Counted from the whole stretch's first letter, positions 1-40,982 are shown. The stretch is 42,317 nt of DNA, filler included, from Yuukianura sp. NJ FZ-2021 (GCA_046563655.1; 2 parts of 2 records of this genome joined end to end with filler, not necessarily neighbours in it); one strand, 5' to 3'. The notes: generated by a model from the sequence alone, not told the origin. A program made the numbers and translations.

Positions 1-1
1 A

Positions 2-65
2 GAGAGTGACTCCTACTAAGGAGAATGACTCCTACTAGAGTATCTTACTAGAGAGTGTCCTACTA
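2..65. repeat. Four short degenerate direct repeats ending in CTACTA/TTACTA
   Basis: GAGAGTGACTCCTACTA (2-18), GGAGAATGACTCCTACTA (20-37), GAGTATCTTACTA (38-50), GAGAGTGTCCTACTA (51-65); may continue left of the window. Confidence 0.6.
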
Positions 66-586
66 CAGTGTGTCCCAGACCGAATCTGGATCGCTACTTA
101 TATACACCCATAGTTGCGTCAGCCATACAGCTCTCATGGCCTGTCCATAAATGGAGTGACACTGGAGACGGATGTTTGTGAGTCTCGCCCGTGGCGAGCG
201 CTCACATGCCTCCCCGGTCTTGTCGATTTGAATTTTTAAATTACTAGTTGCAATACAAATGCTTGCTTACACTGTTTCTGGCCGACAGTTCTTAATCACA
301 GATATTAACCCTTTTCTGTATTGTTTAGCTATATTTTGTGTGAAGTACCTTCCTACTAATTGTGCACTCTTAACAGCTTTTAGTGACAGATTTCGGCGAA
401 TACATTTTTAGTTTACCAATATTTTGTCTATATTTTTCTAATAGTTTTGTACTGGCAACAGTTACCCAATGACATTCAATTAGTGTCTATTTCTAGTTTA
501 CAGTTTCCATTTAATTGATGCGTTGACGGTTTACATTTTTGAGAAGCTGGAGAATAAATGATTCTCAGCCATAAGTCCACCGAACC

Positions 587-2055
587 ATGTTTATCAAATT
601 AACTGAACTTCAACATTTGTCGTTTTTTGTCGTCGAATGTCACAAAATGTTACAAAATGTCTCTAAATAACCACATCATTATCTGACCGCAAGGAGACCC
701 ACTGTAGTTGTCAATTGCCCATAGCATTTGGCTCGTGACAGCGGTCTTCTTTTTAGGCGTGCCGACACTATAAAGTAAATATTGGAAAACAAATAACAAC
801 GAGATGAATTCCCTGTTTACTCCCGGTCAAATAAACATAACGCTTCCTATTCTTCATCTCAAGGTGGTTTATCGAACCACTTACCTCAAGAGACGTGTGT
901 CGAGTAAATCTCGTCAAACATAAGCTCACAGAAGAATGTTTGTCAAATTAACTGAACTTCAACATTTGTCGTTTTTTGTCGTCGAATGTCACAAAAATGT
1001 TACAAAATGTCTCTAAATAACCACATCATTATCTGACCGCATGGAGACCAACTGTAGTTGTCAATAGCCCCTTGCATCTGGCTCGTTACAGCGGTCTTTT
1101 TTTAAGGCTTGCCGACACTATAAAGTAAATATTGCCCAACAAATAACAGCGAGATGAAGTCCCTGTTTACCTCCCGGTCAAATAAACAGAACACTTCCTA
1201 TTCTTCATCTCAAGGTGGTTTTTCGAACTGCTTACCTCAAGAAACGCGTGTCGAGTAAATCTCGTCAAACATAAGCCCACAGAAGCATGTTTGTCGAATT
1301 AACTAACCTTCAACATTTGTCGTTTTTTGTCGTCGAATGTCACAAAATGGTACAAAATGTCTCTAAATAACCACATCATTATCTGACCGCAAGGAGACCC
1401 ACTGTAGTTGTCAATTGCCCATAGCATTTGGCTCGTGACAGCGGTCTTCTTTTTAGGCGTGCCGACACTATAAAGTAAATATTGGAAAACAAATAACAAC
1501 AAGATGAATTCCCTGTTTACTCCCGGTCAAATAAACATAACGCTTCCTATTCTTCATCTCAAGGTGGTTTATCGAACCACTTACCTCAAGAGACGTGTGT
1601 CGAGTAAATCTCGTCAAACATAAGCTCACAGAAGCATGTTTGTCAAATTAACTGAACTTCAACATTTGTCGTTTTTTGTCGTCGAATGTCACAAAATGTT
1701 ACAAAATGTCTCTAAATAACCAAATCATTATCTGACCGCAAGGAGACCCACTGTAGTTGTCAATTGCCCATAGCATTTGGCTCGTGACAGCGGTCTTCTT
1801 CTTAGGCGTGCCGACACTATAAAGTAAATATTGGAAAACAAATAACAACGAGATGAATTCCCTGTTTACTCCCGGTCAAATAAACATAACGCTTCCTATT
1901 CTTCATCTCAAGGTGGTTTTTCGAACGGCTTACCGCACGAAACGCGTGTCGAGTAAATCTCGTCAAACATAAGCTCACAGAAGCATGTTTGTCAAATTAA
2001 CTGAACTTCAACATTTGTCGTTGTTTGTCGTCGAATGTCACAAAATGTTACAAAT
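587..2055. repeat. Tandem repeat, ~349-bp unit, ~4.2 copies
   Basis: ATGTTT(A/G)TC(A/G)AATTAACT recurs at 587, 936, 1287, 1636 and 1985; units near-identical, copy 2 the most diverged. Confidence 0.95.
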
Positions 2056-2268
2056 GTTATTTTTGAAAAAGTTCCTATTTGTTCGTAAAACGAAAAAGCT
2101 TAAAAGTTTTCAAGTTTGAACTTGAAAATTCTCAGAATTGTCCAAGGTCAGAGGTAAAACGAATACTTTTTATTTTTGTTTGTAACGAACAAAACTAGAA
2201 AAGCTTTTCAGTCGCAATTTCCTATTGAACGCTTCAACACACTAAAAAAACTTTAAGCAATTTCAAAA

Positions 2269-3009
2269 ATGACAAGCCAATTTGATTTTGAAAAACTCCC
2301 ATACCTCGTCGTCAAAGAAATTTTTGGAAAACTAGATTTTGCGAGTGCTGAGCACCTTGCAAAAACGTTTCCACACTCTGTAGACATACTGCTACCACAG
2401 CTGGATAATTTTTACTAAACAGTTCGTCTATTTGCGACGTATGTTCACCGTGTGGACATACATTCCAGCTATTCCAGACCACTACACCCCGTAGTGCTGC
2501 AGACTCTTCAGAAATTTCCGATTGGACGTGAGCCTTCGGTGAAGAATTTGCTGCTCGAGGTCGGAAAGTATCATGTAACGGTAGACATCAAACTGTTCCG
2601 CTTTTCCAGTGTGGAAGACCTCCTCGCACTCGTGAACGAATTTGAAACTTTATGGCTATATAATACCTACACCTTAGAAGACAGCATCATAATCATGCCA
2701 CGTCGTTACACCAACTTTGAACGTGATCGAGAGATTACGTTTTCTACCGTCCTTAAGCTGCACAACCACTTCCATCCCAACATCAAGAACCAGAAGTTGG
2801 ATGATTTGTGCAATACAGCCTTACTTGCATATAACCGAATGCTTGATGAAGCACAACGGAAGCATGACTTGGAGAAGCGCTATCGGAAGAGGAAGGAGAA
2901 ACTACAACGCTGGAGTCGTAGACGAACCAACTTCAAAAAAATCTCATCTTTTTCTGAACATGTTCCGTCGTCGCGAAGCTCTTCGGCGTCTAAGCAGACG
3001 CTAAGGTAA
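2269..3009 (+). pseudogene. F-box-like protein interrupted by one in-frame TAA (2416-2418)
   Basis: ATG 2269 reads MTSQFDFEKLPYLVVKEIFGKLDFASAEHLAKTFP, fitting the F-box pattern (LP..(V/I)..IF..L); after the TAA the same frame continues into listed ORF 2452-3009; AATAAA directly follows the stop. Confidence 0.6.
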
Positions 3010-3346
3010 TAAAAAGAGTATAAAAATGAATATAAAAGCCTATTTTGTAATTGATCTAAATTTCTAAATTTTTATGTAGAATTTCAGCCTCATGGCATCG
3101 CTCTTACAGCTGATCACAAGCCTTGCACACTGGAAGTTGGAATTCTTGAAATTGAAAATTAATTAAATCTTTATTTTTAAATTCAATTAAAGTTAAATTT
3201 TTATTGTTAATTTTTTAATATAATGAAAGTATAATTATAATAACAATTAAAATAATAAAAAAATTTACAAAGTATGATAATTTATGAAATAAAAAATGTA
3301 TCAAAATCAGTTTGTAATAAATGCATAGAAAAAATTATGTCAAATT

Positions 3347-4639
3347 TTAAACGTCTGGATCTTCTAAGTCGGCATCCATGGCATACTGAACCATGAGCCG
3401 CATAGTTTCCAAAACGTCGTCTCTTTGAAACATACCTAGAACATTGGCCTTTTGATGTTCTACGACAAGTCTGGCAGCATGAGCGGTGATTCTTCCGCAG
3501 TTGGCGTCGGGTCCCATATTCCTGTAATTACGGCTGGGTCGGTAGTTCCAAAATAGAGTGTCACTCCTTCCGAACTTCTTGGCTAGAACTGTACTAACCA
3601 ACAGTCTCATATTTTCAAGAATGTCCGGCTTGAACGTGTCGTACATATACGCTTCCCTGAAAAGATAAAAGTTGATTGTAAAACTTAATGCTTATTTGGT
3701 CATGTATTTTTATTTGTAAACTAACTTACCAGTTGACGATATCAATTACTGCCATCATTAGATGACCCGGAACGTGAACTGGGAGAATTAGAATCTCCGT
3801 GTTGTCCGGAAGAGCCCAGAATGCGACCTCCATAATTGCATATACGTCCCAAGTCGACCTCATGAATTGTCGTACCTGCAAGTCCGTGGTGGAGCAGTCG
3901 AAGCCTTTGCGGATGTCATCTTTTAGGAAGTACGGTGCAACCCTGAACGATACATCTGAATGGATGTACTGGATTCTGTTGTTACCGTTTTGCAGCATCA
4001 ATCGCTGTAAAATATTCAAAATTAGAATAAATACAATAAATAAGAAATTGAAAATCAACCTACCTGCATAAAAACATTAAAGATCGGCATTGGAGTTCCA
4101 AGTTCTGGTTGGTCCTCAAAATCTCGAACCCTCTTCTCCGGAACTTTCGTGAAGTTATGATCATAATAATAGTCGTTGCATTTGATGTCGTACATATATT
4201 CCCTGTCCCAAATCAGCGAGTCAGCTAGAATTTCTGTGCCGGCGTAGCTGAGGTGCGGTAGTGGCTTGGCGTTGGCGGAGTCGATCCAATCCGCCCGATG
4301 TTTTGCTGGAACGTTTTTCATCATGAAGTACGAGTGTACTTCATGAATTCCGCGACGAAGTCGAATCAAATCGTTCACCATGAACCTTAGGAATGTTGGG
4401 TCTGTGGTAGAATTTCTGGAAAAAACAAAACAAACTCTAAATATTACTTTGAAAAAGCTACATTGGAGGTAATTGACTTGGAACATACCTTTGTTTTACA
4501 AATTTGTTGACGACGTCAGTGTAATCGTCCTTGATTTTTCTTGGAATAGACGCCGGCTTCCCACGAACATCAAACAGCAATACTTCCAGTATTTCTTCCC
4601 AGTGTATGGGAAAATAATATGGAAGATCCCGTTCAAAAC
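3347..4639 (-). CDS. Multi-exon Ulp1/SENP-like (C48, clan CE) cysteine protease; 5' exon(s) unresolved
   Basis: Exons 4639-4489, 4415-4064, 4004-3730, 3656-3347 are joined in frame by GT-AG introns 4488-4416, 4063-4005, 3729-3657. Product has IFNVFMQRL..IQYIHS, ILPVHVPGHLMMAVIDIVNWEAYMYDT and GPDANCG: His-Asp-Cys in C48 order. Confidence 0.75.
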
Positions 4640-7005
4640 CTAAAATTACCGTTTTTATCAAAACTTCTAAATCTTAACGTGTTAGCAGTGATTCAGGCAC
4701 AGTTTTCAACGCTGAATCCACTGGTACCTTTAGATTTGGGCTACCATTTGTAGCGCCAAAGTTACAGCAAATTAAAATTTTTTAACTTTTAACAAAATTT
4801 TACGCATAAATTAGTTGTATCTTCTAAAGATACGATCATTAAGACTTTAAAACATCATCATTGACATAGTTTTAGACGTGGAATCCGATGCAATAACCAG
4901 TTTCCTTCCACTATTCATCATTCATGAGTTACAACTAAAAAACGGCAAAACTGAAAAAACTGCAAATTAACTTTTCAAAAGTATCGCCAGCCCCGTATCG
5001 CTCGCCCTCTCTTGAAAAGCTCTTTTCTCGTCGGTAGAGGGAGACACTGGTTGCAAATAGGAGTCTAATAAAACTTAGGGAAATTATCAAAACCTAACCA
5101 ACAAAACTAAAACAAAAATTGAAATAAAAATTAACAACTTGAAATTAAAATTATATACGTATTTCATTGTCGTATTTTCAGACAATGTCAAAAGGATCAG
5201 CGTCTCCCACTCCAGGCCCGTCTAAACGACCATGTCACGTATGTCTTGTCTGTAATGAAAGATTTCAGACCAACGTCCAGCTTCTTATCCACGAGGAAAT
5301 TCAACATCATGACTCTTTAGACAATGAAGAGGAGCAGACACTACCCACCGCACGCGAAATTCTGGACATGTATCGAGAATTGAAGTGTCTGTCTTGTAAT
5401 CAATCGTTTGCCTGTCGAGATGAAATGCAACAGCATTTCTATGACATTCATCCAGACTTTTTCTCAATTAAATCACAAGATGGAGGTCTACGTCCAACAC
5501 CTTTAATACCCATCGAAGTGGAGTTAAGCGTTACATCTCTAAAAGTCGTCAAAGAATACAAAGCAAAATTTGACGAATTCAAGTGTGAAGATGGCGTTGA
5601 CGAGCGAGATTTTTTCAAGTGCGTTTACTCGTCTTCTGTTCATCGGATCAAAGAAGATCGGAAAGAGTGGAAAAACTTAAAGGTTTTTTTCTCCATGGTT
5701 TGCAACTTTACGAAGACTCAAGCCGACGGATCTGTTGAAACAAACCGTGGCTGTTTCACATCATATCGTCATCCATGAAAGCCTTCCAAAGATCTGGACG
5801 ATTATGGGCCACCAAATATCCAACCAAATTGAACACTTTACAAACGAAAGAAGTGGATGGGATTTGGACGGTATAACTGAGTTTAAGTTAGTGACTGCAA
5901 AATACCAATTCACAAAAATTGGAACCTTCATCGAAACACCGTTTCCACTTTCCGAGCATAACAAAACGTTGCTAAAGATAAACAACAGTGAAGTGTCCAT
6001 TTCTAACTCTCACAAGTCTAACTCTCAGTTCTTGCACACAAAAGAATTGCTGGAGTTCCCAACATTAATCGCCACCGCTACAGGGTTGACAAGTTGGTCA
6101 GAACATATGCTCCCCATACATCTAAAGTGAACACACAAGGAATCAAATTTCCAGTAACGATACAGCAGCTCCCTTTATTCGAAAAGCTCAATCCTCGTAT
6201 CTCATTGACAGTTCTCGGTTATGATATGGACGGCCCAGCAGCCCCACCACGTACTCAGCAAAGCAGTCGTAAGAAATCAGGCACTAACAAAAGAGAAGAT
6301 TTGGATTTGTTCAAGTACATGCAATAAAACATTTCCATTCTCTACAATTCAAAAGAGGCCAAACCTATCCATATCGATCTGATGTGTCTCATGCAAGGTA
6401 ACAATTCGCATTTTCTCCTTATTCGAAATCTCGAATCACTCATGTCATCCCCCGATCACAAAGGCTCTAAACACATTTGCCGCAACTGTCTGTCAAACTT
6501 TACCCTTCCAAGAACCCTGAAAGAAATTTGACATCACAAGACAGGAATTTCAGCAGGAAGTCGATAACGGTGGCAACATTGAACTTCTTTTCAAAAAAGC
6601 CGCGTATCCCTATTCACTGATGACATCATGTGAAGACTTTGAGATGACTAGTCTTCCACCAAAAGAAGCATTTTTCAACGACTTAACCGAGTCACCAATT
6701 CAAGACGATGTCTATAATCATGCAAAGAAGGTCTGGGACAGCTTTAACATTGAAAACATGGGACAGTGGCATGACCTCTACGTTCGTCTGGATGTGTCCC
6801 TTCTAGTCGACGTTATGGAGGGAGTGAGGAAGCTGATGATGGACAGTTATGGTCTAGAACTTGGCCATTACTACTCGCTTCCTATGATGGCTATTGATTG
6901 CGCTTTGAAGAAGTCTGGAGTCGTCCTGGATTTGATCACAGACCCAACGATGCATTGCTGGATTGAAGCAGGGATTCGAGGTAAGTAACTTGTGTCACAT
7001 TTAGG

Positions 7006-7023
7006 TAACCTAACCTAACCTAA
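7006..7023. repeat. (TAACC)n tract in PolB intron 6981-7130
   Basis: TAACCTAACCTAACCTAA, immediately preceded by TTAGG. Confidence 0.85.
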
Positions 7024-7276
7024 GAGATCCCTAACCCATATCGGGCGATCTCAGATTGGCCGATATCAGAACGATCTCGGGCGATCTCAGGGACAAAATT
7101 GAAGTGTTTTTTAATTAATTTTCATTTTAGGTGGCTACGTTAGCGTTGGCTCTAGACGGAAAGCAACTGGAAATAATAAATACATGGGAGATGAATACGA
7201 TCCAAATCAACCAATATATTATATAATTTACAGTGATGCGAACAACTTATACGTAAGTGTTTTAAGTTAAACAGGT

Positions 7277-7299
7277 TAACCTAACCTAACCTAACCTAA
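7277..7299. repeat. (TAACC)n tract in PolB intron 7253-7336
   Basis: TAACC x4 plus TAA, preceded by AGGT. Confidence 0.85.
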
Positions 7300-7524
7300 A
7301 TTTATATCAATGTTTTAAGATTGATAATATTTATAGGGCAAATCAATGAGTCTCGCGCTTCCTCTTGGCAACTTTCAATGGTTGACAGAAGAACAAATCA
7401 GAAAAATCTCTGACGATATCAACGCATTTGTAGCTGAAACAGAAAGAAAGAAAAGTGTTGGCTACATGTTGGGGGTAGCATGGTTGGTGTGTGCAAGAAC
7501 GTAAAACGTTCTAGTTTCGAAAGT

Positions 7525-7934
7525 TGAGTCATCGAAATAACTCAAACAAGAATGCAAGGTGAAGGTCCAAAGTATTTGGAAGTTGAGTCATAGAATTAGG
7601 TCGTTAATAAGTCATATAAGAAGGTTAAGTTCAATGATGGCATTTTAATTTGGAAGTCTTATTTGGTACAAAGTCCGATCTGTTTTCAAAGACGAAGGTG
7701 ACTCACACCTTACGTGCACACGTGTGAACAAAGTCCAAAATCGTTTTTGTGTGGTCCACAGTCCGACCCTTTTTCAAGGACGGTGGTGAGTCATGTCCTT
7801 AGGTGCACACGTGGGAACAAAGTCCAGAATCGTATGTTCATCGTCATTTCAATTTGTACTATTAATAGCCGACCCTACAATTAGGTTTTGCGCATGTATA
7901 TATATAGTAACGCTTGAGTTGTGAGAAGTCAGTC
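7525..7934 (+). promoter_or_regulatory. Putative IAP promoter: four AP-1-type sites, two E-boxes, TATA tract, Inr-like TCAGT
   Basis: TGAGTCA at 7525, 7584, 7787; TGACTCA at 7699; CACGTG at 7719, 7808 inside a ~89-bp imperfect duplication; TATATATATA ~7897-7906; TCAGTC at 7929; ATG at 7943. Confidence 0.55.
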
Positions 7935-7942
7935 AAAGGAAT

Positions 7943-8862
7943 ATGGAGGGCCTCATGAGTTATGAGGGGAGATTACAAACGTTTCAGAACGCTCAAGTAA
8001 GATGGCCATTGAATTTTGTGGCCCCGGAAGCATGTTCGTTTGCGGGATTTTACTACCTCGGAGTAGATGACAAGGTGGGTAATTTTCAACTTTTTCTAAA
8101 AAAAAGTAAAAAATTTGGAATAATTTGTTTTCTGTTGAACAGGTTGCGTGTCCATATTGCCGGGGTGTCGTGGGGGAATGGGTGGTTGGTGATGAGCCGT
8201 TGTTGCAGCACCGGAAACATTTCCCACGCTGTCCGTATGTTGTAGTCATGACCGGTCTACTATACGGGGTTGGGTTTGTTACCGTTCCGGATGTCACTGG
8301 GACCCACGGAGCCGAAGCGACCGGAGCAGCGAGGATTGATGTTTTCGAATATGTGACCACAGGAACCGGTATGCCCGGCACGGTAGCTTCTGATGTTTCC
8401 ACCGACCCTGGCCAGAGGGGAATAGATGCTGCCGGTGCTGGGACGAGAGGAACCGACATGGCCGCAGCAGCAGCCGCCCCCGAAACCGACATGGCCGGCG
8501 CGGGAAGAACCGCGCCTGAAACCGACATCCCCAGCGATGGAGGAGCCGATTTGGCCGGGTCGGCAACACGTTACGTGGCAGAAATAACTAGCCTCGAAAC
8601 TGATATTCCCAGTGTGGGTGGAAGTGATGTTGCCGGGACATCTGAACATGTTTCAAGTGCGGCATCCGGCGTTTTTGTTTCTGGTGTTACCAGAGACGAC
8701 TCTGGCAACAGTATTTCTTGTAAGATTTGCTGGGACAAAGAAGCCTGCGACGTATTCTTGCCATGTAAACATTTGGTTGCTTGTCCTACATGTTCATTGT
8801 CATTAAGAAGTTGTGCAGTTTGCCGAGAACCTATACTAATTAGATTAAGGGTGTATACTTAG
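7943..8862 (+). CDS. iap: Inhibitor of apoptosis protein, single BIR plus C-terminal RING, two exons (~283 aa)
   Basis: Exons 7943-8074 and 8143-8862 with a phase-0 GT-AG intron give BIR RLQTF..WP..AGFYYLGVDDKVACPYC..W..GDEPLLQHRKHFPRC and RING CKICWDKEACDVFLPCKHLVACPTC..CAVCR; AATAAA at 8985. Confidence 0.93.
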
Positions 8863-8892
8863 TCAAGTGTTGGTATTTTGTGTTGAGTTTCC

Positions 8893-8949
8893 CAAGTCCT
8901 CCCACAACCCAATTCAACTAAAAGTTGAATTGAGTTGTGGGATGACTTG
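8893..8949. other. Hairpin (27-bp arms, 2 mismatches, 3-nt loop) in IAP 3' UTR
   Basis: CAAGTCCTCCCACAACCCAATTCAACT-AAA-AGTTGAATTGAGTTGTGGGATGACTTG. Confidence 0.9.
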
Positions 8950-9108
8950 TGTTGCTGCGAGTTCGAATCCAACATTGAGAAATGAATAAAAAATAATTTG
9001 ATTCAAGTTTGTGTGTTTTCGTTTGACCTACGTTTTGTCATTTACTATTTAATGAAGTGAAATTTTTGAGTAAATTAACATTTGTTGTGAAAGATAAGAA
9101 GAGGAAGC

Positions 9109-9327
9109 ATGGAAGGGATCCGGAGATTTAAGTGTGACAATTGTGGTGACCGTTTCGATTCGCAAGATTCCTTTTGGGATCACGCTTTTGAACGTCATGT
9201 TGGCGTCTGCTGCGTAGGCTTAGTAGCCATAAGATTCTATCTTATTGAGATTGGGAGAGATGCGGCGAGTGGAGTCGCGGGAGTTTTGAGAGTTGGCGAG
9301 GTAGAGAGAGAGATTCAGTTAGTTTAG
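9109..9327 (+). CDS. Small protein with one C2H2 zinc finger
   Basis: FKCDNCGDRFDSQDSFWDHAFERH matches C-x2-C-x3-F-x8-H-x4-H; AATAAA at 9388. Confidence 0.55.
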   Translation: MEGIRRFKCDNCGDRFDSQDSFWDHAFERHVGVCCVGLVAIRFYLIEIGRDAASGVAGVLRVGEVEREIQLV

Positions 9328-9558
9328 TTTAGTGTGTTTTTGGTCTCCGCATGAGACGGAGTTTTTGTTGTATATTTTATTGCGACGAATAAATATATAA
9401 ATATATTTATTCATCGCTGTTGGTTTTGTGTTTGTGGTGATTGTCTTGGTGGTCATTTGGGTCTGAGAGCCTGTTGGCTCAGAGAGTAGTCTGGTGAGGT
9501 GTTTTTCAGTTGTTTAGCGTCGTAGGGCGTTACAGTCATGTTTACGACCTTCGCATAC

Positions 9559-12500
9559 GTTGCTGTGTCGTCCCTCATCTCGTGACCCTTTATTTATGAA
9601 AATTTGTGTCGAAACAAATCATTCAAAAAAACCTCCACGCGGAGCGATGCCGGGTGAAAATGAGTAACTTTTCTGAAATCCTCCTGAAAAGTACTACAGG
9701 AACCCAAGTTTAATTGGCGTGGATAGATCGCAATTAAATCTGGTTAGAGCGTACTTAAAAGTCTGAATGAAACGCTCAACTTCGGATTTTATCTCGGGTT
9801 GGAATACGGCACCCAGGGCAATGTCGAGCACCATTTTGACACAAAACGACTTAAATTTGTGAGAGTAAACATGCAAATGTGAGAATGAACAGAAAGTAAA
9901 TTTCATTTTTGAAATCCTCATAATAAGTGCTACAGGAACCCACTTTCACTTGCTGTGTCGTCCATCATCTTGTTACCTTTATTTATGAAAATTCATGTTT
10001 CAAAACAAAGAATTCAAAAGAAATGCATTCCGGAACGATGCTGGGTAAAAGTCAACTATATTTTTGGAATCCTCATAAAAAGTGCTACAGGAACCCACGT
10101 TCATTTGCTGTGTCGTCCCTCATCTCGTGACCCTTTTCTTATGAAAATTTGTTTCAAAACAAATCAATCGAAAAACCTCCACGAGGAGCGATGACGGGCG
10201 AAAATGAGTTACTTTTTTGAAATCCTCCTGAAAAGTACTACAGGTACCCACGTTCAGTAGCTGTGTCGTCCCTCATCTCGTGACCCTTTATTTATGAAAA
10301 TTTGTGTCGAAACAAATCATTCAAAGAAACCTCCACGCGGAGCGATGCCGGGTGAAAATGAGTAACTTTTCTGAAATCCTCCTGAAAAGTACTACAGGAA
10401 CCCAAGTTTAATTGGCGTGGATAGATCGCAATTAAATCTGGTTAGAGCGTACTTAAAAGTCTGAATGAAACGCTCAACTTCGGATTTTATCTCGGGTTGG
10501 AATACGGCACCCAGGGCAATGTCGAGCACCATTTTGACACAAAACGACTTAAATTTGTGAGAGTAAACATGCAAATGTGAGAATGAACAGAAAGTAAATT
10601 ACATTTTTGAAATCCTCATAAAAAGTGCTACAGGAACCCACTTTCACTTGCTGTGTCGTCCATCATCTTGTTACCTTTATTTATGAAAATCCATGTTTCA
10701 AAACAAAGAATTCAAAAGAAATGCATTCCGGAACGATGCTGGGTAAAAGTCAACTATATTTTTGGAATCCTCATAAAAAGTGCTACAGGAACCCACGTTC
10801 ATTTGCTGTGTCGTCCCTCATCTCGTGACCCTTTATTTATGAAAATTTGTGTCGAAACAAATCATTCAAAGAAACCTCCACGCGGAGCGATGCCGGGTGA
10901 AAATGAGTAACTTTTCTGAAATCCTCCTGAAAAGTACTACAGGAACCCAAGTTTAATTGGCGTGGATAGATCGCAATTAAATCTGGTTAGAGCGTACTTA
11001 AAAGTCTGAATGAAACGCTCAACTTCGGATTTTATCTCGGGTTGGAATACGGCACCCAGGGCAATGTCGAGCACCATTTTGACACAAAACGACTTAAATT
11101 TGTGAGAGTAAACATGCAAATGTGAGAATGAACAGAAAGTAAATTTCATTTTTGAAATCCTCATAAAAAGTGCTACAGGAACCCACTTTCACTTGCTGTG
11201 TCGTCCATCATCTTGTTACCTTTATTTATGAAAATTCATGTTTCAAAACAAAGAATTCAAAAGAAATGCATTCCGGAACGATGCTGGGTAAAAGTCAACT
11301 ATATTTTTGGAATCCTCATAAAAAGTGCTACAGGAACCCACGTTCATTTGCTGTGTCGTCCCTCATCTCGTGACCCTTTTCTTATGAAAATTTGTTTCAA
11401 AACAAGTCAATCGAAAAACCTCCACGAGGAGCGATGACGGGCGAAAATGAGTTACTTTTTTGAAATCCTCCTGAAAAGTACTACAGGTACCCACGTTCAG
11501 TTGCTGTGTCGTCCCTCATCTCGTGACCCTTTATTTATGAAAATTTGTGTCGAAACAAATCATTCAAAGAAACCTCCACGCGGTGCGATGCCGGGTGAAA
11601 ATGAGTAACTTTTCTGAAATCCTCCTGAAAAGTACTACAGGAACCCAAGTTTAATTGGCGTGGATAGATCGCAATTAAATCTGGTTAGAGCGTACTTAAA
11701 AGTCTGAATGAAACGCTCAACTTCGGATTTTATCTCGGGTTGGAATACGGCACCCAGGGCAATGTCGAGCACCATTTTGACACAAAACGACTTAAATTTG
11801 TGAGAGTAAACATGCAAATGTGAGAATGAACAGAAAGTAAATTTCATTTTTGAAATCCTCATAAAAAGTGCTACAGGAACCCACTTTCACTTGCTGTGTC
11901 GTCCATCATCTTGTTACCTTTATTTATGAAAATTCATGTTTCAAAACAAAGAATTCAAAAGAAATGCATTCCGGAACGATGCTGGGTAAAAGTCAACTAT
12001 ATTTTTGGAATCCTCATAAAAAGTGCTACAGGAACCCACGTTCATTTGCTGTGTCGTCCCTCATCTCGTGACCCTTTTCTTATGAAAATTTGTTTCAAAA
12101 CAAGTCAATCGAAAAACCTCCACGAGGAGCGATGACGGGCGAAAATGAGTTACTTTTTTGAAATCCTCCTGAAAAGTACTACAGGTACCCACGTTCAGTT
12201 GCTGTGTCGTCCCTCATCTCGTGACCCTTTATTTATGAAAATTTGTGTCGAAACAAATCATTCAAAGAAACCTCCACGCGGAGCGATGCCGGGTGAAAAT
12301 GAGTAACTTTTCTGAAATCCTCCTGAAAAGTACTACAGGAACCCAAGTTTAATTGGCGTGGATAGATCGCAATTAAATCTGGTTAGAGCGTACTTAAAAG
12401 TCTGAATGAAACGCTCAACTTCGGATTTTATCTCGGGTTGGAATACGGCACCCAGGGCAATGTCGAGCACCATTTTGACACAAAACGACTTAAATTTGTG

Positions 12501-15500
12501 AGAGTAAACATGCAAATGTGAGAATGAACAGAAAGTAAATTACATTTTTGAAATACTCATAAAAAGTGCTACAGGAACCCACTTTCACTTGCTGTGTCGT
12601 CCATCATCTTGTTACCTTTATTTATGAAAATCCATGTTTCAAAACAAAGAATTCAAAAGAAATGCATTCCGGAACGATGCTGGGTAAAAGTCAACTATAT
12701 TTTTGGAATCCTCATAAAAAGTGCTACAGGAACCCACGTTCATTTGCTGTGTCGTCCCTCATCTCGTGACCCTTTATTTATGAGAATTTGTGTCGAAACA
12801 AATCATTCAAAGAAACCTCCACGCGGAGCGATGCCGGGTGAAAATGAGTAACTTTTCTGAAATCCTCCTGAAAAGTACTACAGGAACCCAAGTTTAATTG
12901 GCGTGGATAGATCGCAATTAAATCTGGTTAGAGCGTACTTAAAAGTCTGAATGAAACGCTCAACTTCGGATTTTATCTCGGGTTGGAATACGGCACCCAG
13001 GGCAATGTCGAGCACCATTTTGACACAAAACGACTTAAATTTGTGAGAGTAAACATGCAAATGTGAGAATGAACAGAAAGTAAATTTCATTTTTGAAATC
13101 CTCATAAAAAGTGCTACAGGAACCCACTTTCACTTGCTGTGTCGTCCATCATCTTGTTATCTTTATTTATGAAAATTCATGTTTCAAAACAAAGAATTCA
13201 AAAGAAATGCATTCCGGAACGATGCTGGGTAAAAGTCAACTATATTTTTGGAATCCTCATAAAAAGTGCTACAGGAACCCACGTTCATTTGCTGTGTCGT
13301 CCCTCATCTCGTGACCCTTTTCTTATGAAAATTTGTTTCAAAACAAATCAATCGAAAAACCTCCACGAGGAGCGATGACGGGCGAAAATGAGTTACTTTT
13401 TTGAAATCCTCCTGAAAAGTACTTCAGGTACCCACGTTCAGTAGCTGTGTCGTCCCTCATCTCGTGACCCTTTATTTATGAAAATTTGTGTCGAAACAAA
13501 TCATTCAAAGAAACCTCCACGCGGAGCGATGCCGGGTGAAAATGAGTAACTTTTCTGAAATCCTGCTGAAAAGTACTACAGGAACCAAAGTTTAATTGGC
13601 GTGGATAGATTGCAATTAAATCTGGTTAGAGCGTGCTTAAAAGTCTGAATGAACCGCTCAAAAACGGATTTTATCTCGGGTTGGAATACGGCACCCAGGG
13701 CAATGTCGAGCACCATTTTGACACAAAACGACTTAAATTTGTGAGAGTGAACATGCAAATGTGAAAATGAACAGAAAGTAAATTACATTTTTGAAATCCT
13801 CATAAAAAGTGCTACAGGAACCCACTTTCACTTGCTGTGTCGTCCATCATCTTGTTACCTTTATTTATGAAAATCCATGTTTCAAAACAAAGAATTCAAA
13901 AGAAATGCATTCCGGAACGATGCTGGGTAAAAGTCAACTATAGTTTTGGAATCCTCATAAAAAGTGCTACAGGAACCCACGTTCATTTGCTGTGTCGTCC
14001 CTCATCTCGTGACCCTTTATTTATGAAAATTTGTGTCGAAACAAATCATTCAAAAAAACCTCCACGCGTAGCGATGCCGGGTGAAAATGAGTAACTTTTC
14101 TGAAATCCTCCTGAAAAGTACTACAGGAACCCAAGTTTAATTGGCGTGGATAGATCGCAATTAAATCTGGTTAGAGCGTACTTAAAAGTCTGAATGAAAC
14201 GCTCAACTTCGGATTTTATCTCGGGTTGGAATACGGCACCCAGGGCAATGTCGAGCACCATTTTGACACAAAACGACTTAAATTTGTGAGAGTAAACATG
14301 CAAATGTGAGAATGAACAGAAAGTAAATTTCATTTTTGAAATCCTCATAAAAAGTGCTACAGGAACCCACTTTCACTTGCTGTGTCGTCCATCATCTTGT
14401 TACCTTTATTTATGAAAATTCATGTTTCAAAACAAAGAATTCAAAAGAAATGCATTCCGGAACGATGCTGGGTAAAAGTTATTTATATTTTTGGAATCCT
14501 CATAAAAAGTGCTACAGGAACCCACGTTCAGTTGCTATGTCGTCCCTCATCTCGTGACCCTTTTTTATGAAAATTTGTTTCAAAACAAATCAATCGAAAA
14601 ACCTCCACGCGGAGCGATGCCGGGCGAAAATGAGTTACTTTTCTGAAATCCTGCTGAAAAGTACTACAGGAACCAAAGTTTAATTGGCGTGGATAGATTG
14701 CAATTAAATCTGGTTAGAGCGTACTTAAAAGTCTGAATGAAACGCTCAACTTCGGATTTTATCTCGGGTTGGAATACGGCACCCAGGGCAATGTCGAGCA
14801 CCATTTTGACACAAAACGACTTAAATTTGTGAGAGTGAACATGCAAATGTGAGAATGAACAGAAAGTAAATTACATTTTTGAAATCCTCATAAAAAGTGC
14901 TACAGGAACCCGCTTTCACTTGCTGTGTCGTCCATCATCTTGTTACCTTTATTTATGAAAATTCATGTTTCAAAACAAAAAATTCAAAAGAAATGCATTC
15001 CGGAACGATGCTGGGTAAAAGTCAACTATACTTTTGAAATCCTCATAAAAAGTGCTACAGGAACCCACGTTCAGTTGCTGTGTCGTCCCTCATCTCGTGA
15101 CCCTTTTTTTATGAAAATTTGTTTCAAAACAAAGAATTCAAAAAACCTCCACGCGGAGCGATGCCGGGCGAAAATGAGTTACTTTTCTGAAATCCTGCTG
15201 AAAAGTACTACAGGAACCAAAGTTTAATTGGCGTGGATAGATTGCAATTAAATCTGGTTAGAGCGTACTTAAAAGTCTGAATGAAACGCTCAACTTCGGA
15301 TTTTATCTCGGGTTGGCATACGGCACCCAGGGCAATGTCGAGCACCATTTTGACACAAAACGACTTAAATTTGTGAGAGTGAACATGCAAATGTGAGAAT
15401 GAACAGAAAGTAAATTACATTTTTGAAATCCTCATAAAAAGTGCTACAGGAACCCACTTTCACTTGCTGTGTCGTCCATCATCTTGTTACCTTTATTTAT

Positions 15501-18500
15501 GAAAATTCATGTTTCAAAACAAAAAATTCAAAAGAAATGCATTCCGGAACGATGCTGGGTAAAAGTCAACTATATTATTGAAATCCTCATAAAAAGTGCT
15601 ACAGGAACCCACTTTCACTTGCTGTGTCGTCCATCATCTTGTTACTTTATTTATGAAAATTCATGTTTCAAAACAAAGAATTCAAAAGAAATGCCATTCC
15701 GGAACGATGCTGGGTAAAAGTCATTTATATTTTTGGAATCCTCATAAAAAGTGCTACAGGAACCCACGTTCAGTTGCTGTGTCGTCCCTCATCTCGTGAC
15801 CCTTTTTTTATGAAAATTTGTTTCAAAACAAAGAATTCAAAAGAAATGCATTCCGGAACGATGCTGGGTAAAAGCCATTTATATTTTTGGAATCCTCATA
15901 AAAAGTGCTACAGGAACCCACGTTCAGTTGCTGTGTCGTCCCTCATCTCGTGACCCTTTTTTATGAAAATTTGTTTCAAAACAAATCAATCGAAAAACCT
16001 CCACGCGGAGCGATGCCGGGCGAAAATGAGTTACTTTTTTGAAATCCTCCTGAAAAGTACTACAGGAACCCACGTTCATTTGCTGTGTCGTCCCTCATCT
16101 CGTGACCCTTTATTTATGAAAATTTGTGTCGAAACAAATCATTCAAAGAAACCTCCACGCGGAGCGATGCCGGGTGAAAATGAGTAACTTTTCTGAAATC
16201 CTCCTGAAAAGTACTACAGGAACCCAAGTTTAATTGGCGTGGATAGATCGCAATTAAATCTGGTTAGAGCGTACTTAAAAGTCTGAATGAAGCGCTCAAC
16301 TTCGGATTTTATCTCGGGTTGGAATACGGCACCCAGGGCAATGTCGAGCACCATTTTGACACAAAACGACTTAAATTTGTGAGAGTAAACATGCAAATGT
16401 GAGAATGAACAGAAAGTAAATTTCATTTTTGAAATCCTCATAAAAAGTGCTACAGGAACCCACTTTCACTTGCTGTGTCGTCCATCATCTTGTTATCTTT
16501 ATTTATGAAAATTCATGTTTCAAAACAAAGAATTCAAAAGAAATGCATTCCGGAACGATGCTGGGTAAAAGTCAACTATATTTTTGGAATCCTCATAAAA
16601 AGTGCTACAGGAACCCACGTTCATTTGCTGTGTCGTCCCTCATCTCGTGACCCTTTTCTTATGAAAATTTGTTTCAAAACAAGTCAATCGAAAAACCTCC
16701 ACGAGGAGCGATGACGGGCGAAAATGAGTTACTTTTTTGAAATCCTCCTGAAAAGTACTACAGGTACCCACGTTCAGTTGCTGTGTCGTCCCTCATCTCG
16801 TGACCCTTTATTTATGAAAATTTGTGTCGAAACAAATCATTCAAAGAAACCTCCACGCGGAGCGATGCCGGGTGAAAATGAGTAACTTTTCTGAAATCCT
16901 CCTGAAAAGTACTACAGGAACCCAAGTTTAATTGGCTTGGATAGATCGCAATTAAATCTGGTTAGAGCGTACTTAAAAGTCTGAATGAAACGCTCAACTT
17001 CGGATTTTATCTCGGGTTGGCATACGGCACCCAGGGCAATGTCGAGCACCATTTTGACACAAAACGACTTAAATTTGTGAGAGTGAACATGCAAATGTGA
17101 GAATGAACAGAAAGTAAATTACATTTTTGAAATCCTCATAAAAAGTGCTACAGGAACCCACTTTCACTTGCTGTGTCGTCCATCATCTTGTTACCTTTAT
17201 TTATGAAAATTCATGTTTCAAAACAAAAAATTCAAAAGAAATGCATTCCGGAACGATGCTGGGTAAAAGTCAACTATATTTTTGAAATCCTCATAAAAAG
17301 TGCTACAGGAACCCACTTTCACTTGCTGTGTCGTCCATCATCTTGTTACCTTTATTTATGAAAATTCATGTTTCAAAACAAAGAATTCAAAAGAAATGCA
17401 TTCCGGAACGATGCTGGGTAAAAGTCATTTATATTTTTGGAATCCTCATAAAAAGTGCTACAGGAACCCACGTTCAGTTGCTGTGTCGTCCCTCATCTCG
17501 TGACCCTTTTTTTATGAAAATTTGTTTCAAAACAAAGAATTCAAAAGAAATGCATTCCGGAACGATGCTGGGTAAAAGCCATTTATATTTTTGGAATCCT
17601 CATAAAAAGTGCTACAGGAACCCACGTTCAGTTGCTGTGTCGTCCCTCATCTCGTGACCCTTTTTTATGAAAATTTGTTTCAAAACAAATCAATCGAAAA
17701 ACCTCCACGCGGAGCGATGCCGGGCGAAAATGAGTTACTTTTCTGAAATCCTCCTGAAAAGTACTACAGGAACCCACGTTCATTTGCTGTGTCGTCCCTC
17801 ATCTCGTGACCCTTTATTTATGAAAATTTGTGTCGAAACAAATCATTCAAAGAAACCTCCACGCGGAGCGATGCCGGGTGAAAATGAGTAACTTTTCTGA
17901 AATCCTCCTGAAAAGTACTACAGGAACCCAAGTTTAATTGGCGTGGATAGATCGCAATTAAATCTGGTTAGAGCGTACTTAAAAGTCTGAATGAAGCGCT
18001 CAACTTCGGATTTTATCTCGGGTTGGAATACGGCACCCAGGGCAATGTCGAGCACCATTTTGACACAAAACGACTTAAATTTGTGAGAGTAAACATGCAA
18101 ATGTGAGAATGAACAGAAAGTAAATTTCATTTTTGAAATCCTCATAAAAAGTGCTACAGGAACCCACTTTCACTTGCTGTGTCGTCCATCATCTTGTTAT
18201 CTTTATTTATGAAAATTCATGTTTCAAAACAAAGAATTCAAAAGAAATGCATTCCGGAACGATGCTGGGTAAAAGTCAACTATATTTTTGGAATCCTCAT
18301 AAAAAGTGCTACAGGAACCCACGTTCATTTGCTGTGTCGTCCCTCATCTCGTGACCCTTTTCTTATGAAAATTTGTTTCAAAACAAAGTCAATCGAAAAA
18401 CCTCCACGAGGAGCGATGACGGGCGAAAATGAGTTACTTTTTTGAAATCCTCCTGAAAAGTACTACAGGTACCCACGTTCAGTTGCTGTGTCGTCCCTCA

Positions 18501-21500
18501 TCTCGTGACCCTTTATTTATGAAAATTTGTGTCGAAACAAATCATTCAAAGAAACCTCCACGCGGAGCGATGCCGGGTGAAAATGAGTAACTTTTCTGAA
18601 ATCCTCCTGAAAAGTACTACAGGAACCCAAGTTTAATTGGCGTGGATAGATCGCAATTAAATCTGGTTAGAGCGTACTTAAAAGTCTGAATGAAACGCTC
18701 AACTTCGGATTTTATCTTGGGTTGGCATACGGCACCCAGGGCAATGTCGAGCACCATTTTGACACAAAACGACTTAAATTTGTGAGAGTGAACATGCAAA
18801 TGTGAGAATGAACAGAAAGTAAATTACATTTTTGAAATCCTCATAAAAAGTGCTACAGGAACCCACTTTCACTTGCTGTGTCGTCCATCATCTTGTTACC
18901 TTTATTTATGAAAATTCATGTTTCAAAACAAAAAATTCAAAAGAAATGCATTCCGGAACGATGCTGGGTAAAAGTCAACTATATTATTGAAATCCTCATA
19001 AAAAGTGCTACAGAAACCCACTTTCACTTGCTGTGTCGTCCATCATCTTGTTACCTTTATTTATGAAAATTCATGTTTCAAAACAAAGAATTCAAAAGAA
19101 ATGCATTCCGGAACGATGCTGGGTAAAAGTCATTTATATTTTTGGAATCCTCATAAAAAGTGCTACAGGAACCCACGTTCAGTTGCTGTGTCGTCCCTCA
19201 TCTCGTGACCCTTTTTTTATGAAAATTTGTTTCAAAACAAAGAATTCAAAAGAAATGCATTCCGGAACGATGCTGGGTAAAAGCCATTTATATTTTTGGA
19301 ATCCTCATAAAAAGTGCTACAGGAACCCACGTTCAGTTGCTGTGTCGTCCCTCATCTCGTGACCCTTTTTTTATGAAAATTTGTTTCAAAACAAATCAAT
19401 CGAAAAACCTCCACGCGGAGCGATGCCGGGCGAAAATGAGTTACTTTTTTGAAATCCTCCTGAAAAGTACTACAGGAACCCACGTTCATTTGCTGTGTCG
19501 TCCCTCATCTCGTGACCCTTTATGAAAATTTGTGTCGAAACAAATCATTCAAAGAAACCTCCACGCGGAGCGATGCCGGGTGAAAATGAGTAACTTTTCT
19601 GAAATCCTCCTGAAAAGTACTACAGGAACCCAAGTTTAATTGGCGTGGATAGATCGCAATTAAATCTGGTTAGAGCGTGCTTAAAAGTCTGAATGAACCG
19701 CTCAAAAACGGATTTTATCTCGGGTTGGAATACGGCACCCAGGGCAATGTCGAGCACCATTTTGACACAAAACGACTTAAATTTGTGAGAGTGAACATGC
19801 AAATGTGAAAATGAACAGAAAGTAAATTACATTTTTGAAATCCTCATAAAAAGTGCTACAGGAACCCACTTTCACTTGCTGTGTCGTCCATCATCTTGTT
19901 ACCTTTATTTATGAAAATTCCATGTTTCAAAACAAAGAATTCAAAAGAAATGCATTCCGGAACGATGCTGGGTAAAAGTCAACTATAGTTTTGGAATCCT
20001 CATAAAAAGTGCTACAGGAACCCACGTTCATTTGCTGTGTCGTCCCTCATCTCGTGACCCTTTATTTATGAAAATTTGTGTCAAAACAAATCATTCAAAA
20101 AAACCTCCACGCGTAGCGATGCCGGGTGAAAATGAGTAACTTTTCTGAAATCCTCCTGAAAAGTACTACAGGAACCCAAGTTTAATTGGCGTGGATAGAT
20201 CGCAATTAAATCTGGTTAGAGCGTACTTAAAAGTCTGAATGAAACGCTCAACTTCGGATTTTATCTCGGGTTGGAATACGGCACCCAGGGCAATGTCGAG
20301 CACCATTTTGACACAAAACGACTTAAATTTGTGAGAGTAAACATGCAAATGTGAGAATGAACAGAAAGTAAATTTCATTTTTGAAATCCTCATAAAAAGT
20401 GCTACAGGAACCCACTTTCACTTGCTGTGTCGTCCATCATCTTGTTACCTTTATTTATGAAAATTCATGTTTCAAAACAAAGAATTCAAAAGAAATGCAT
20501 TCCGGAACGATGCTGGGTAAAAGTTATTTATATTTTTGGAATCCTCATAAAAAGTGCTACAGGAACCCACGTTCAGTTGCTATGTCGTCCCTCATCTCGT
20601 GACCCTTTTTTATGAAAATTTGTTTCAAAACAAATCAATCGAAAAACCTCCACGCGGAGCGATGCCGGGCGAAAATGAGTTACTTTTCTGAAATCCTGCT
20701 GAAAAGTACTACAGGAACCAAAGTTTAATTGGCGTGGATAGATTGCAATTAAATCTGGTTAGAGCGTACTTAAAAGTCTGAATGAAACGCTCAACTTCGG
20801 ATTTTATCTCGGGTTGGAATACGGCACCCAGGGCAATGTCGAGCACCATTTTGACACAAAACGACTTAAATTTGTGAGAGTGAACATGCAAATGTGAGAA
20901 TGAACAGAAAGTAAATTACATTTTTGAAATCCTCATAAAAAGTGCTACAGGAACCCGCTTTCACTTGCTGTGTCGTCCATCATCTTGTTACCTTTATTTA
21001 TGAAAATTCATGTTTCAAAACAAAAAATTCAAAAGAAATGCATTCCGGAACGATGCTGGGTAAAAGTCAACTATACTTTTGAAATCCTCATAAAAAGTGC
21101 TACAGGAACCCACGTTCAGTTGCTGTGTCGTCCCTCATCTCGTGACCCTTTTTTTATGAAAATTTGTTTCAAAACGAATCAATCGAAAAACCTCCACGCG
21201 GAGCGATGCCGGGCGAAAATGAGTTACTTTTCTGAAATCCTGCTGAAAAGTACTACAGGAACCAAAGTTTAATTGGCGTGGATATATTGCAATTAAATCT
21301 GGTTAGAGCGTACTTAAAAGTCTGAATGAAACGCTCAACTTCGGATTTTATCTCGGGTTGGAATACGGCACCCAGGGCAATGTCGAGCACCATTTTGACA
21401 CAAAACGACTTAAATTTGTGAGAGTGAACATGAAAATGTGAGAATGAACAGAAAGTAAATTACATTTTTGAAATCCTCATAAAAAGTGCTACAGGAACCC

Positions 21501-24500: not shown

Positions 24501-25000
24501 AAAACGACTTAAATTTGTGAGAGTAAACATGCAAATGTGAGAATGAACAGAAAGTAAATTTCATTTTTGAAATCCTCATAAAAAGTGCTACAGGAACCCA
24601 CTTTCACTTGCTGTGTCGTCCATAATCTTGTTATCTTTATTTGTGAAAATTCATGTTTCAAAACAAAGAATTCAAAAGAAATGCATTCCGGAACGATGCT
24701 GGGTAAAAGTCAACTATATTTTTGGAATCCTCATAAAAAGTGCTACAGGAACCCACGTTCATTTGCTGTGTCGTCCCTCATCTCGTGACCCTTTTCTTAT
24801 GAAAATTTGTTTCAAAACAAGTCAATCGAAAAACCTCCACGAGGAGCGATGACGGGCGAAAATGAGTTACTTTTTTGAAATCCTCCTGAAAAGTACTACA
24901 GGTACCCACGTTCAGTTGCTGTGTCGTCCCTCATCTCGTGACCCTTTATTTATGAAAATTTGTGTCGAAACAAATCATTCAAAGAAACCTCCACGCGGAG
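9559..25000. repeat. Composite satellite of ~154-bp subunit variants and a ~236-bp subunit; higher-order units of ~545, 698, 851 and 1005 bp
   Basis: Every subunit ends in GAAATCCTC(A/C)T(A/G)AAAAGT(G/A)CTACAGG(A/T)ACC(C/A)A; the 236-bp subunit occurs 22 times, separated by 2-5 of the 154-bp subunits; array runs into the gap. Confidence 0.97.
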
Positions 25001-25100
25001 NNNNNNNNNNNNNNNNNNNNNNNNNNNNNNNNNNNNNNNNNNNNTTAATTAATTAANNNNNNNNNNNNNNNNNNNNNNNNNNNNNNNNNNNNNNNNNNNN
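25001..25100. other. Assembly gap with artificial six-frame-stop linker
   Basis: 44 N + TTAATTAATTAA (25045-25056) + 44 N = exactly 100 bp. Confidence 0.95.
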
Positions 25101-38101: not shown

Positions 38102-38195
38102 GTTATTATTTAAGCCAATTAAATAAAAATTTAAATTTTAGTTTGAATTTAACCGTTTGACCAAACACAAGTGTTTTTTTTAAGTTGTAGTAGAG

Positions 38196-40881: not shown

Positions 40882-40982
40882 TTGGAGGACTAAATTAAAA
40901 TGCGACAAGTGTCATGGTCTTTATTGTTAGCAGCTTCTTGAGTGAAAAGGTTCATTGACGCCCAACTCCTTGGCTGGTCAAC

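Follow-up and report, generated by a model that had tools for sequence, protein, structure and literature searches.

How the terminal protein (TP) that is fused to the polymerase of Polintons becomes released is an open question (PMC11161782), and the DNA described here raises it in a particular form. The stretch, of 42,317 nucleotides with filler included (hereafter the window), comes from Yuukianura sp. NJ FZ-2021 (GCA_046563655.1; two parts of two records joined end to end). It contains two loci for protein-primed DNA polymerases (PolB) of the Maverick/Polinton type, both on the + strand and spaced about 24 kb apart, and in each of them a leader of C2H2-type zinc fingers is followed by a short Q-x-G-G motif. 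An earlier note on this DNA had proposed that the leader is released at this motif, that the motif mimics the C-terminus of SUMO (QTGG), and that an Ulp1-like protease encoded head-to-head with the left PolB may make the cut, in place of adenain or together with it. Is the motif a cleavage site and, if so, for which enzyme? The part of this proposal that holds is a conserved, probably proteolytic site at the boundary between leader and PolB; SUMO mimicry is not supported, as the di-Gly is variable and no ubiquitin-like fold is associated with it.

The window consists of animal-type eukaryotic DNA, in which the GT-AG introns are short and the satellite arrays long. The best explanation of its content is that it carries two endogenous, decayed Maverick/Polinton (adintovirus-type) elements from different lineages. 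The left and right PolB copies share 26-49% protein identity over alignable stretches only and blastn finds no DNA match between them, which assigns the two elements to different lineages. A recent duplication of the two window copies is ruled out by the same figures.

The motif in the window

The features that bear on the motif are the following.

5185-5775, + strand: first open reading frame (ORF) of the left PolB relic, with an ATG, two C2H2-type fingers, the QDGG linker and, up to a frame break, the first part of the TP-like D1 domain
about 5242-5310 and 5386-5451, + strand: the two fingers of the left PolB (zf-C2H2_4, E 3.6e-5)
5476-5487, + strand: QDGG candidate cleavage site, residues Q98-G101
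33591-34393, + strand: right PolB leader in several exons, with GT-AG junctions in the DNA and three fingers of the C2H2 type (33623-33688, 33986-34051, 34328-34393)
34427-34438, + strand: QQGG candidate cleavage site
34439-34822, + strand: TP-like D1 domain in the right PolB; residues 78-208 in the model of metagenome locus L001 are homologous to it
40983-41352, + strand: small basic protein in two frames, with QKGG at 41251-41262 and, after it, about 29 residues that make up a hydrophobic C-terminal peptide

Translation of the window DNA places the three motifs precisely where they had been noted: CAAGATGGAGGT at 5476-5487 gives QDGG, CAGCAGGGTGGT at 34427-34438 gives QQGG and CAAAAAGGGGGA at 41251-41262 gives QKGG. 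They are three of only four QxGG occurrences in the six-frame translation (84,630 residues), the fourth (35632) lying in a stop-ridden, non-coding frame. In the left PolB the last finger spans C68-H89 (nucleotides 5386-5451) and Q98 stands 8 residues past it; in the right PolB the final His of the last finger ends at 34393 and QQGG lies 11 residues on. The statement that QxGG follows the last C2H2 finger within about 15 residues in both polymerases is thus correct. In addition, BLASTP of the two N-terminal ORFs superposes SQDGG on NQQGG (24% identity over 85 residues, E 3e-6). Because the two copies are distant and their motifs nevertheless align, QDGG and QQGG reflect conservation across an old divergence and not a recent copy.

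The right leader has a further peculiarity, as its segment 33591-34290 is apparently made of some five short exons, the long ones each encoding a single C-x2-C-x12-H-x4-H-P finger.

Conservation of the motif among PolB homologues

A HMMER full-library search with the right N-terminal ORF as query returned 17 proteins, 15 of which match the zinc fingers only, P0001 and P0004 being the only matches across the region. A profile search added six more relatives, bringing the PolB relatives obtained from protein searches to eight. The motif is found directly past the last finger in all five finger-bearing relatives (P0001 QVGGG, P0004 QVGLG, P0018 QVGYG, P0019 QFGYG and P0021 QLGGG), and its Gln and first Gly are invariant in alignments A2 and A3.

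A metagenome scan yielded 80 PolB loci. For scoring, 36 N-termini were kept (34 loci plus P0019 and P0021), namely those with a recognisable vOTU Cys box and at least 150 residues upstream of it, 48 of 84 being dropped; they form 26 clusters at 60% identity, and the motif was scored 110-210 residues upstream of the vOTU Cys. Under these rules Q-x-G-(G/xG) is present at the junction of leader and TP in 8 of the 26 PolB clusters, as well as in both window copies. The motif is concentrated at this junction: its 11 occurrences in about 3,480 junction residues amount to 0.0032 per residue, and the 13 in the remaining parts of these ORFs (about 32,000 residues) to 0.0004. The site is retained by L038 (IQYGAG) despite a leader devoid of fingers, and the aligned place reads LFGAG in L048 and RLGFG in L065. 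L004, L001 and P0019 form a group with the right window copy in a quick tree (Shimodaira-Hasegawa-like approximate likelihood ratio test support of 99), the other motif-positive lineages being scattered. A scan of IMG/VR with alignment A1 gave no relative, and one with A3 gave a single relative, L081.

The variation within the site is informative about the enzyme. About half of the homologous sites read Q-x-G-x-G, with Y, L, F, A, Q or E before the last Gly (QVGYG, QVGLG, QVGFG, QFGYG, QYGAG, QTGQG and QDGEG), and the two forms, QxGG (type 1) and QxGxG (type 2), alternate at one aligned position. What is conserved among homologues is therefore Q-x-G followed by a Gly at P1 or P1', in 8 of 26 lineages, and not the di-Gly on which the earlier note had relied; Gly-Gly at P2-P1 is far from invariant. 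Proteases of the SUMO and ubiquitin systems require Gly-Gly together with the fold of the modifier. As homologues read QVGYG, QDGEG and the like, the di-Gly that such enzymes need is not conserved.

Another feature concerns L001 (2731-2800), L002 and L003, in which a second site, RRR-I/L-Q-x-G-x-G, precedes a single zinc finger; the finger of these loci is thus flanked by two candidate sites and a basic run.

Structural setting of the site

Polinton PolB is described as a succession of TP (the D1 domain, with an LF/PAD-like fold), vOTU, exonuclease and polymerase (PMC11161782). In an AlphaFold model of L001:2731-4230 (mean predicted local confidence, pLDDT, 74) the zinc finger occupies residues 31-58, a confident alpha/beta domain occupies residues 78-208, and Q66-G70 falls between them within residues 60-72, where pLDDT is below 50. 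Foldseek places Y-family polymerases first among the matches of this model (2w7o_A, E 3.7e-3, about 130 columns), and these modelled similarities appear to agree with the published LF/PAD-like fold of D1. In the left copy, modelled with low confidence, Q98-G101 likewise falls in a segment (90-107) with pLDDT below 50. Since the motif occupies a low-pLDDT segment between the finger and D1, it is placed in a linker immediately upstream of the TP domain, that is, in a flexible region as is expected of an adenain-type site. Upstream of the site the models contain a zinc finger, with a helix and short strands, and disorder; nothing resembling the beta-grasp fold of ubiquitin-like proteins is present there.

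Candidate sites and proteases of adenain type in the elements

The adenovirus protease (AVP, or adenain) cuts at (M/I/L)XGG↓X or (M/I/L)XGX↓G, and Gln at P4 is documented for it, the pre-terminal protein (pTP) of HAdV-E4 being cut at QRGF↓G (PMC4246237). The two forms of this rule are those that alternate in PolB: every site of the window, like each of the 11 at the junction, combines a Gly at P2 with another at P1 or P1'. On the other hand, P4 is Gln in these sites (Leu in L048 only) and not Met, Ile or Leu, which makes them documented but non-consensus for AVP (PMC4246237).

The motif also recurs in other proteins of the elements. The small basic protein of the window, QKGG-bearing as the earlier note had it, has homologues that keep the same kind of site in the same context: LLSQKGG↓AVLPLL in the window, LLNQRGG↓ALIPLL in L001 (L001:8971-9297) and LLVQKGG↓SIAGVV in L038 (L038:5606-5956), the arrow marking the predicted cut. 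In this protein Q-[KR]-G-G always precedes a hydrophobic C-terminal tail of about 20-29 residues. The tail resembles a releasable membrane-active peptide. Outside PolB, five sites belong to L038 (three of them in a 138-aa protein, the others singly in proteins of 117 and 278 aa), two to a 173-aa protein of L046 and one to a 109-aa protein of L001. The non-PolB proteins of these three loci, which were chosen for their length and for the site in their PolB, thus contain 8 sites, the mean of shuffled sequences being 0.82, and none of 5000 shuffles reached at least 8. Gln is at P4 in 11 of the 34 x-x-G-(G/xG) motifs of the same proteins, its overall frequency being 4.1%.

Enzymes of the fitting family are encoded in the elements themselves. 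When 57 flanking ORFs of the 80 listed were searched with Pfam, L038:6859-7329 and L046:8668-9156 matched Peptidase_C5 (E 2.3e-6 and 1.1e-4, respectively), and these were the two matches to that family; Peptidase_C48 was matched by none of the 57 flanking ORFs of PolB loci that were scanned. Further relatives of the Peptidase_C5 protease are present in L057 and L058.

The PolB site is read as an adenain substrate because of the two-form rule, the recurrence of the motif in element proteins and the presence of C5 proteases in the elements. From these patterns it seems somewhat probable that the motif is a maturation site for the element's own adenain-type (Peptidase_C5) protease. The PolB precursor would then be ordered as a variable N-terminal leader (here with C2H2-type fingers), a flexible linker, TP (D1) and the vOTU-exonuclease-polymerase part. 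The adenain-type protease of the element, the 'PRO' or 'vUlp1' of Polintons, would cut the linker after the second Gly in type 1 sites and before the last Gly in type 2 sites, detaching the leader from the TP domain much as the adenovirus protease trims the N-terminal part of pTP. The same protease would cut the small basic protein at QKGG, freeing its hydrophobic C-terminal peptide, and further core-like proteins would also be cut.

Several points weigh against this reading. Both the cleavage and the enzyme responsible for it are things that we infer from sequence, and a match to the motif need not mean cleavage, as is made plain by a conserved IRGG inside the folded polymerase. The junction motif is absent in 18 of the 26 PolB lineages, and L081, the sole IMG/VR relative, has neither a finger leader nor the motif; the motif is a clade feature, not a general rule. 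L058 encodes a C5-like protease, yet its non-PolB ORFs of at least 70 residues have no site of the Q, L, M or I type. Regarding the enrichment, the test was not blind because of the way in which L001, L038 and L046 were chosen, two of the three having been picked after their hits were seen, and seven control loci are also mildly enriched (6 sites, 2.54 being expected, a number that 195 of 5000 shuffles reach). The window contains no adenain homologue (best E 0.6), the right element being cut by the window end and the left one being a fragment. As for the structures, the model of the left copy is weak (mean pLDDT 55.7) and no Foldseek match of the L001 model reached E 1e-3. Lastly, a conserved Gly-rich linker could act as a hinge.

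This last point can be extended into an explanation without proteolysis, according to which the motif is a conserved Gly hinge or interaction motif at the start of TP, its recurrence in small proteins being due to composition or to some other shared function. It would account for a motif situated in a flexible linker, where Gly is common, and for the two thirds of lineages that lack it; the case for cleavage is made from sequence pattern, and a conserved Q-x-G-S-G-W further downstream illustrates that Q-x-G-x-G can be purely structural. A hinge would not explain why Gln never varies at the position two residues ahead of the first Gly, why Gly strictly alternates between P1 and P1', or why unrelated small proteins of the same elements hold the motif in tenfold excess, with three copies in one 138-aa protein and a constant position before the hydrophobic tail in another. 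We regard this explanation as rather unlikely.

The conserved motif within the folded polymerase deserves mention on its own: it has the form [IL]-R-G-G (36608-36622 in the window, and many loci), fits the classical adenain consensus, and is a structural motif of the polymerase.

Two possible proteases for one precursor

The PolB of these elements has a cysteine protease-like domain of its own, recognisable in the right copy.

34740-35441, + strand: vOTU-like domain of the right PolB, in a frame that differs from that of the preceding ORF (domain name from PMC11161782 and PMC8502044)
34950-34973 and 35277-35294, + strand: vOTU Cys box CFKYAILS and His motif of the right PolB, respectively

Among viruses, OTU and papain-like proteases process polyproteins by cutting after Gly-Gly or Gly-Ala, and it is established that OTU enzymes recognise a C-terminal Gly-Gly. 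The vOTU-like domain might be expected to remove the leader at QxGG by itself, in cis or in trans, all the more as the right copy retains its Cys box and His, alignment A3 shows no variation at Cys, Phe and His, and the domain has been proposed to detach TP from PolB (PMC11161782). The cut proposed in that work, however, is placed between TP and vOTU, on the other side of TP. Moreover, from what is known of the specificity of OTU and other deubiquitinating enzymes, the Tyr, Leu, Phe, Gln or Glu that precedes the last Gly in type 2 sites should not fit the di-Gly tunnel, and the recurrence of the motif in small, unrelated element proteins better fits a virion maturation protease acting in trans. 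Removal of the leader by the vOTU-like domain is thus quite unlikely.

The two enzymes may act on different sides of TP. We tentatively propose, as a possibility that goes beyond the adenain-type site itself, that the replication primer is carved out of the PolB precursor by two proteases in one widespread group of animal Mavericks/adintoviruses: adenain would remove the zinc-finger leader and vOTU would cut the other side of TP, and the same Gln-P4 rule would mark all maturation substrates, including the small basic protein with its release of a membrane-active tail. If this were true, adenoviruses would have inherited the trimming of pTP from Polinton-like ancestors, and the sequence of a Maverick would suffice to read off its maturation sites. 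To our knowledge, no virion of a Polinton/Maverick has ever been isolated. A site of adenain type upstream of TP would tie the maturation of Mavericks to the pTP pathway of adenoviruses, and the predicted Gln-P4 specificity could serve in annotating the maturation products of thousands of endogenous elements.

These proposals have precedents with which they overlap in part. Processing of Polinton PolB has already been published, with another enzyme and another site (vOTU; PMC11161782). That account and ours share the LF/PAD-like D1, followed by an OTU-like domain with Cys and His, and the idea that PolB is processed; they differ in that its vOTU cut lies between TP and vOTU and that the available text of the paper has no occurrence of 'zinc finger' and no adenain-type site upstream of TP. 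Within the main texts of the literature searched, no description was found of an adenain-type site with Gln at P4 that is conserved between leader and TP domain in the PolB of Mavericks.

With adenoviruses the likeness consists in a clan-CE virion protease that trims the N-terminal part of a DNA-priming TP at sites with Gly at P2 and at P1 or P1', in core proteins that carry the same sites, and in the HAdV-E4 pTP site QRGF↓G with its Gln at P4 (PMC4246237). By contrast, the Maverick TP is fused to the polymerase, the part to be removed is a zinc-finger leader, Gln at P4 is the rule, and cleavage is predicted.

Adintoviruses are reported to have an OTU domain at the N-terminus, IAP genes, core proteins that act on membranes and, upstream of PolB, 'Oncoid' ORFs with zinc motifs (PMC8502044), and an adomavirus core protein has been reported to carry adenain motifs (10.1101/341131). 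The core proteins of both groups (cupiennin-like, pX-like and LO6) are small and basic, with adenain motifs and membrane-active tails (PMC8502044; 10.1101/341131), a class into which the small basic protein of the window, with its QKGG and hydrophobic tail, fits by its features. The core motifs published, (MIL)XGXG or L(LR)GG, differ from the Q-x-G type of the window (PMC8502044; 10.1101/341131).

The Ulp1-like gene beside the left PolB

The gene to which the earlier note had tentatively attributed the cleavage lies on the minus strand and comprises the following parts.

3347-3656, - strand: exon D of a clan-CE-like protease gene, with the putative catalytic Asp (YMYDTF) and Cys (DANCG); stop codon at 3347-3349
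3730-4004, - strand: exon C, with the putative catalytic His (PVHVPGHLMMAVID)
4064-4415, - strand: exon B, an N-terminal extension of about 117 residues of no recognised family
4489-4639, - strand: putative exon A, a frame open past an AG acceptor and without ATG

A mini first exon near 4808 is possible. The three introns measure 73, 59 and 73 nucleotides, with donors GTATGT, GTAGGT and GTAAGT and pyrimidine-rich acceptors ending in CAG; they are 70-81% A+T, the exons being 46% G+C, and the joined exon frame is open across 361 codons. As judged from these signals, the gene at 3347-4639 is a real, intact, spliced gene. It does stand head-to-head with the left PolB as had been noted, in divergent orientation and about 545 nucleotides from the ATG at 5185.

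Its resemblance to Ulp1 is of a restricted kind. His198, Asp215 and Cys262 (exon B-D numbering) occur in clan-CE order, with spacings of 17 and 47 that we take to be Ulp1-like. Among the language-model neighbours of the catalytic exons, Peptidase_C48 clusters make up 21 of 30 for exon D (top score 0.93, the recognition being below the tool's threshold) and 26 of 30 for exon C (top score 0.92); such neighbours rate as leads. By contrast, Pfam searches exon by exon, at E up to 10, matched no protease family, PF02902 (C48) and PF00770 (C5) included. A PDB sequence search with exons C and D returned nothing relevant, and a homologue search of exon D against the longer proteins of a 5.8-billion-protein collection returned none. 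In clan enzymes of the Ulp1/SENP type the oxyanion Gln usually stands a few (six) residues before the Cys; here the residues before the Cys read RNMGPDANCG, without Gln, and the position six before the Cys is Met or Asn. The label 'Ulp1-like' can thus be kept for the His-Asp-Cys spacing and the C48 language-model neighbours, but it is borne out by no HMM (hidden Markov model) or sequence search.

Nor is the gene tied to PolB elsewhere. A tblastn search of its four exons against the 80 PolB loci and the window gave nothing but itself (best E 0.45); a divergent protease-PolB pair, whose persistence in other copies would have been expected from the earlier proposal, is therefore not kept beside any of the 80 other PolB loci. 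Compared with the PRO proteins of L038 and L046, the gene product gave a best BLASTP E of 0.14 over 15 residues, and hhalign against a four-sequence PRO alignment gave a probability of 0.3%; in the exon-wise comparison with C48 and C5 models, neither family was matched. Since the gene is intact and the left PolB is dead, the two have different histories.

A separate candidate, namely that this gene is the left element's own PRO, was rejected: it has no similarity to PRO, is far longer, and is intact while the element is dead.

The site could still mimic the SUMO C-terminus and be cut by an Ulp1/SENP-type enzyme, be it one of the host or the product of the spliced neighbour gene. QDGG, QQGG and QKGG do resemble QTGG, the neighbour gene is intact with the triad order and leads just described, and the Polinton protease itself has been named 'vUlp1' (PMC11161782). 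Nonetheless, the loss of the di-Gly in about half of the homologous sites, the zinc finger and disorder that take the place of a ubiquitin-like fold upstream, and the failure of the gene in all exon-wise HMM and sequence tests, with its oxyanion Gln replaced, make this explanation very improbable. The neighbour in particular, having no relative in the 80 PolB loci, being unlike the C5 proteases and adjoining a dead PolB, is not supported as the responsible enzyme. These findings remove the idea of SUMO mimicry by a dedicated Ulp1 enzyme, which the data do not support.

The gene is best read as an unrelated, intact clan-CE protease gene, derived from the host or from a transposon, whose place next to a dead PolB fragment is no more than adjacency. 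Animal DNA transposons commonly encode Ulp1 domains (PMC2836005), and such a transposon is a possible source. Ginger1 and Mutator transposons resemble it in their divergent Ulp1-like domains, intron-containing genes and occurrence in invertebrate genomes (PMC2836005); it differs from them in that neither an integrase nor a transposase is fused to it or adjoins it on its strand, and 1-10000 is free of inverted repeats of at least 40 nucleotides.

The 3' end of this gene adjoins an ORF pair at 2257-3009 (+ strand), which has an F-box-like start (LPYLVVKEIFGKLDF) and no Pfam match.

Other features of the two elements

The right locus continues downstream of the vOTU-like domain as follows.

35574-38101, + strand: rest of the right PolB, with an Endonuclease VII-like insert, exonuclease and polymerase, in several ORFs and frames (PF02945 E 2.7e-9, PF03175 E 5.8e-5)
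38184-38854, + strand: FtsK/A32-type packaging ATPase in three overlapping frames
39421-40911, - strand: rve-type integrase, in pieces in different frames (PF00665 E 3.2e-7)

The order of genes in this locus, with the zinc-finger leader and PolB, the ATPase, an ORF and the integrase on the opposite strand, then the small basic protein and further ORFs, matches that of metagenome locus L001. A pPolB with TP and vOTU, an rve integrase and an FtsK/A32-type ATPase together identify the right locus as a Maverick/Polinton. No capsid genes, protease or terminal inverted repeats were found inside the window, the right element extending past base 42317, and no inverted repeats of at least 40 nucleotides were found around either PolB locus. 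Several genes of the right element are spread over overlapping frames (frameshifts or assembly errors), and the sequence was taken unmended. The Endonuclease VII-like insert (35574-36575, + strand) stands between vOTU and exonuclease; PF02945 is also assigned to P0018 and P0022.

The left locus is more degraded, and its polymerase continues beyond the first ORF in the form given below.

5681-7504, + strand: remainder of the left PolB relic, with at least three frame changes, stopping before the palm domain

In this remainder the vOTU Cys box is not recognisable, and about 300 residues (the part with Endonuclease VII and exonuclease) are missing relative to the right copy. Its sequence identifies the left PolB as a dead relic, frameshifted, internally deleted and truncated at its 3' end. 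The relic has two GT-AG introns (6979-7130 and 7257-7336), each with short runs of (CCTAA)n, which is complementary to telomeric repeats of the TTAGG type.

Directly 3' of the left PolB relic there is an intact gene with BIR and RING domains (IAP-type) at 7925-8862 (+ strand), with an intron within the BIR domain (Pfam: BIR E 3.2e-8, zf-C3HC4_3 E 2.3e-11). IAP homologues have been reported in adintoviruses (PMC8502044).

The two PolB loci are separated by satellites, one with a 153-155-bp unit in higher-order blocks (9906-25000) and another with a unit of about 510 bp in 16 copies (25025-33225). A satellite family with a 349-bp unit is present in 4.2 copies at 570-2054.

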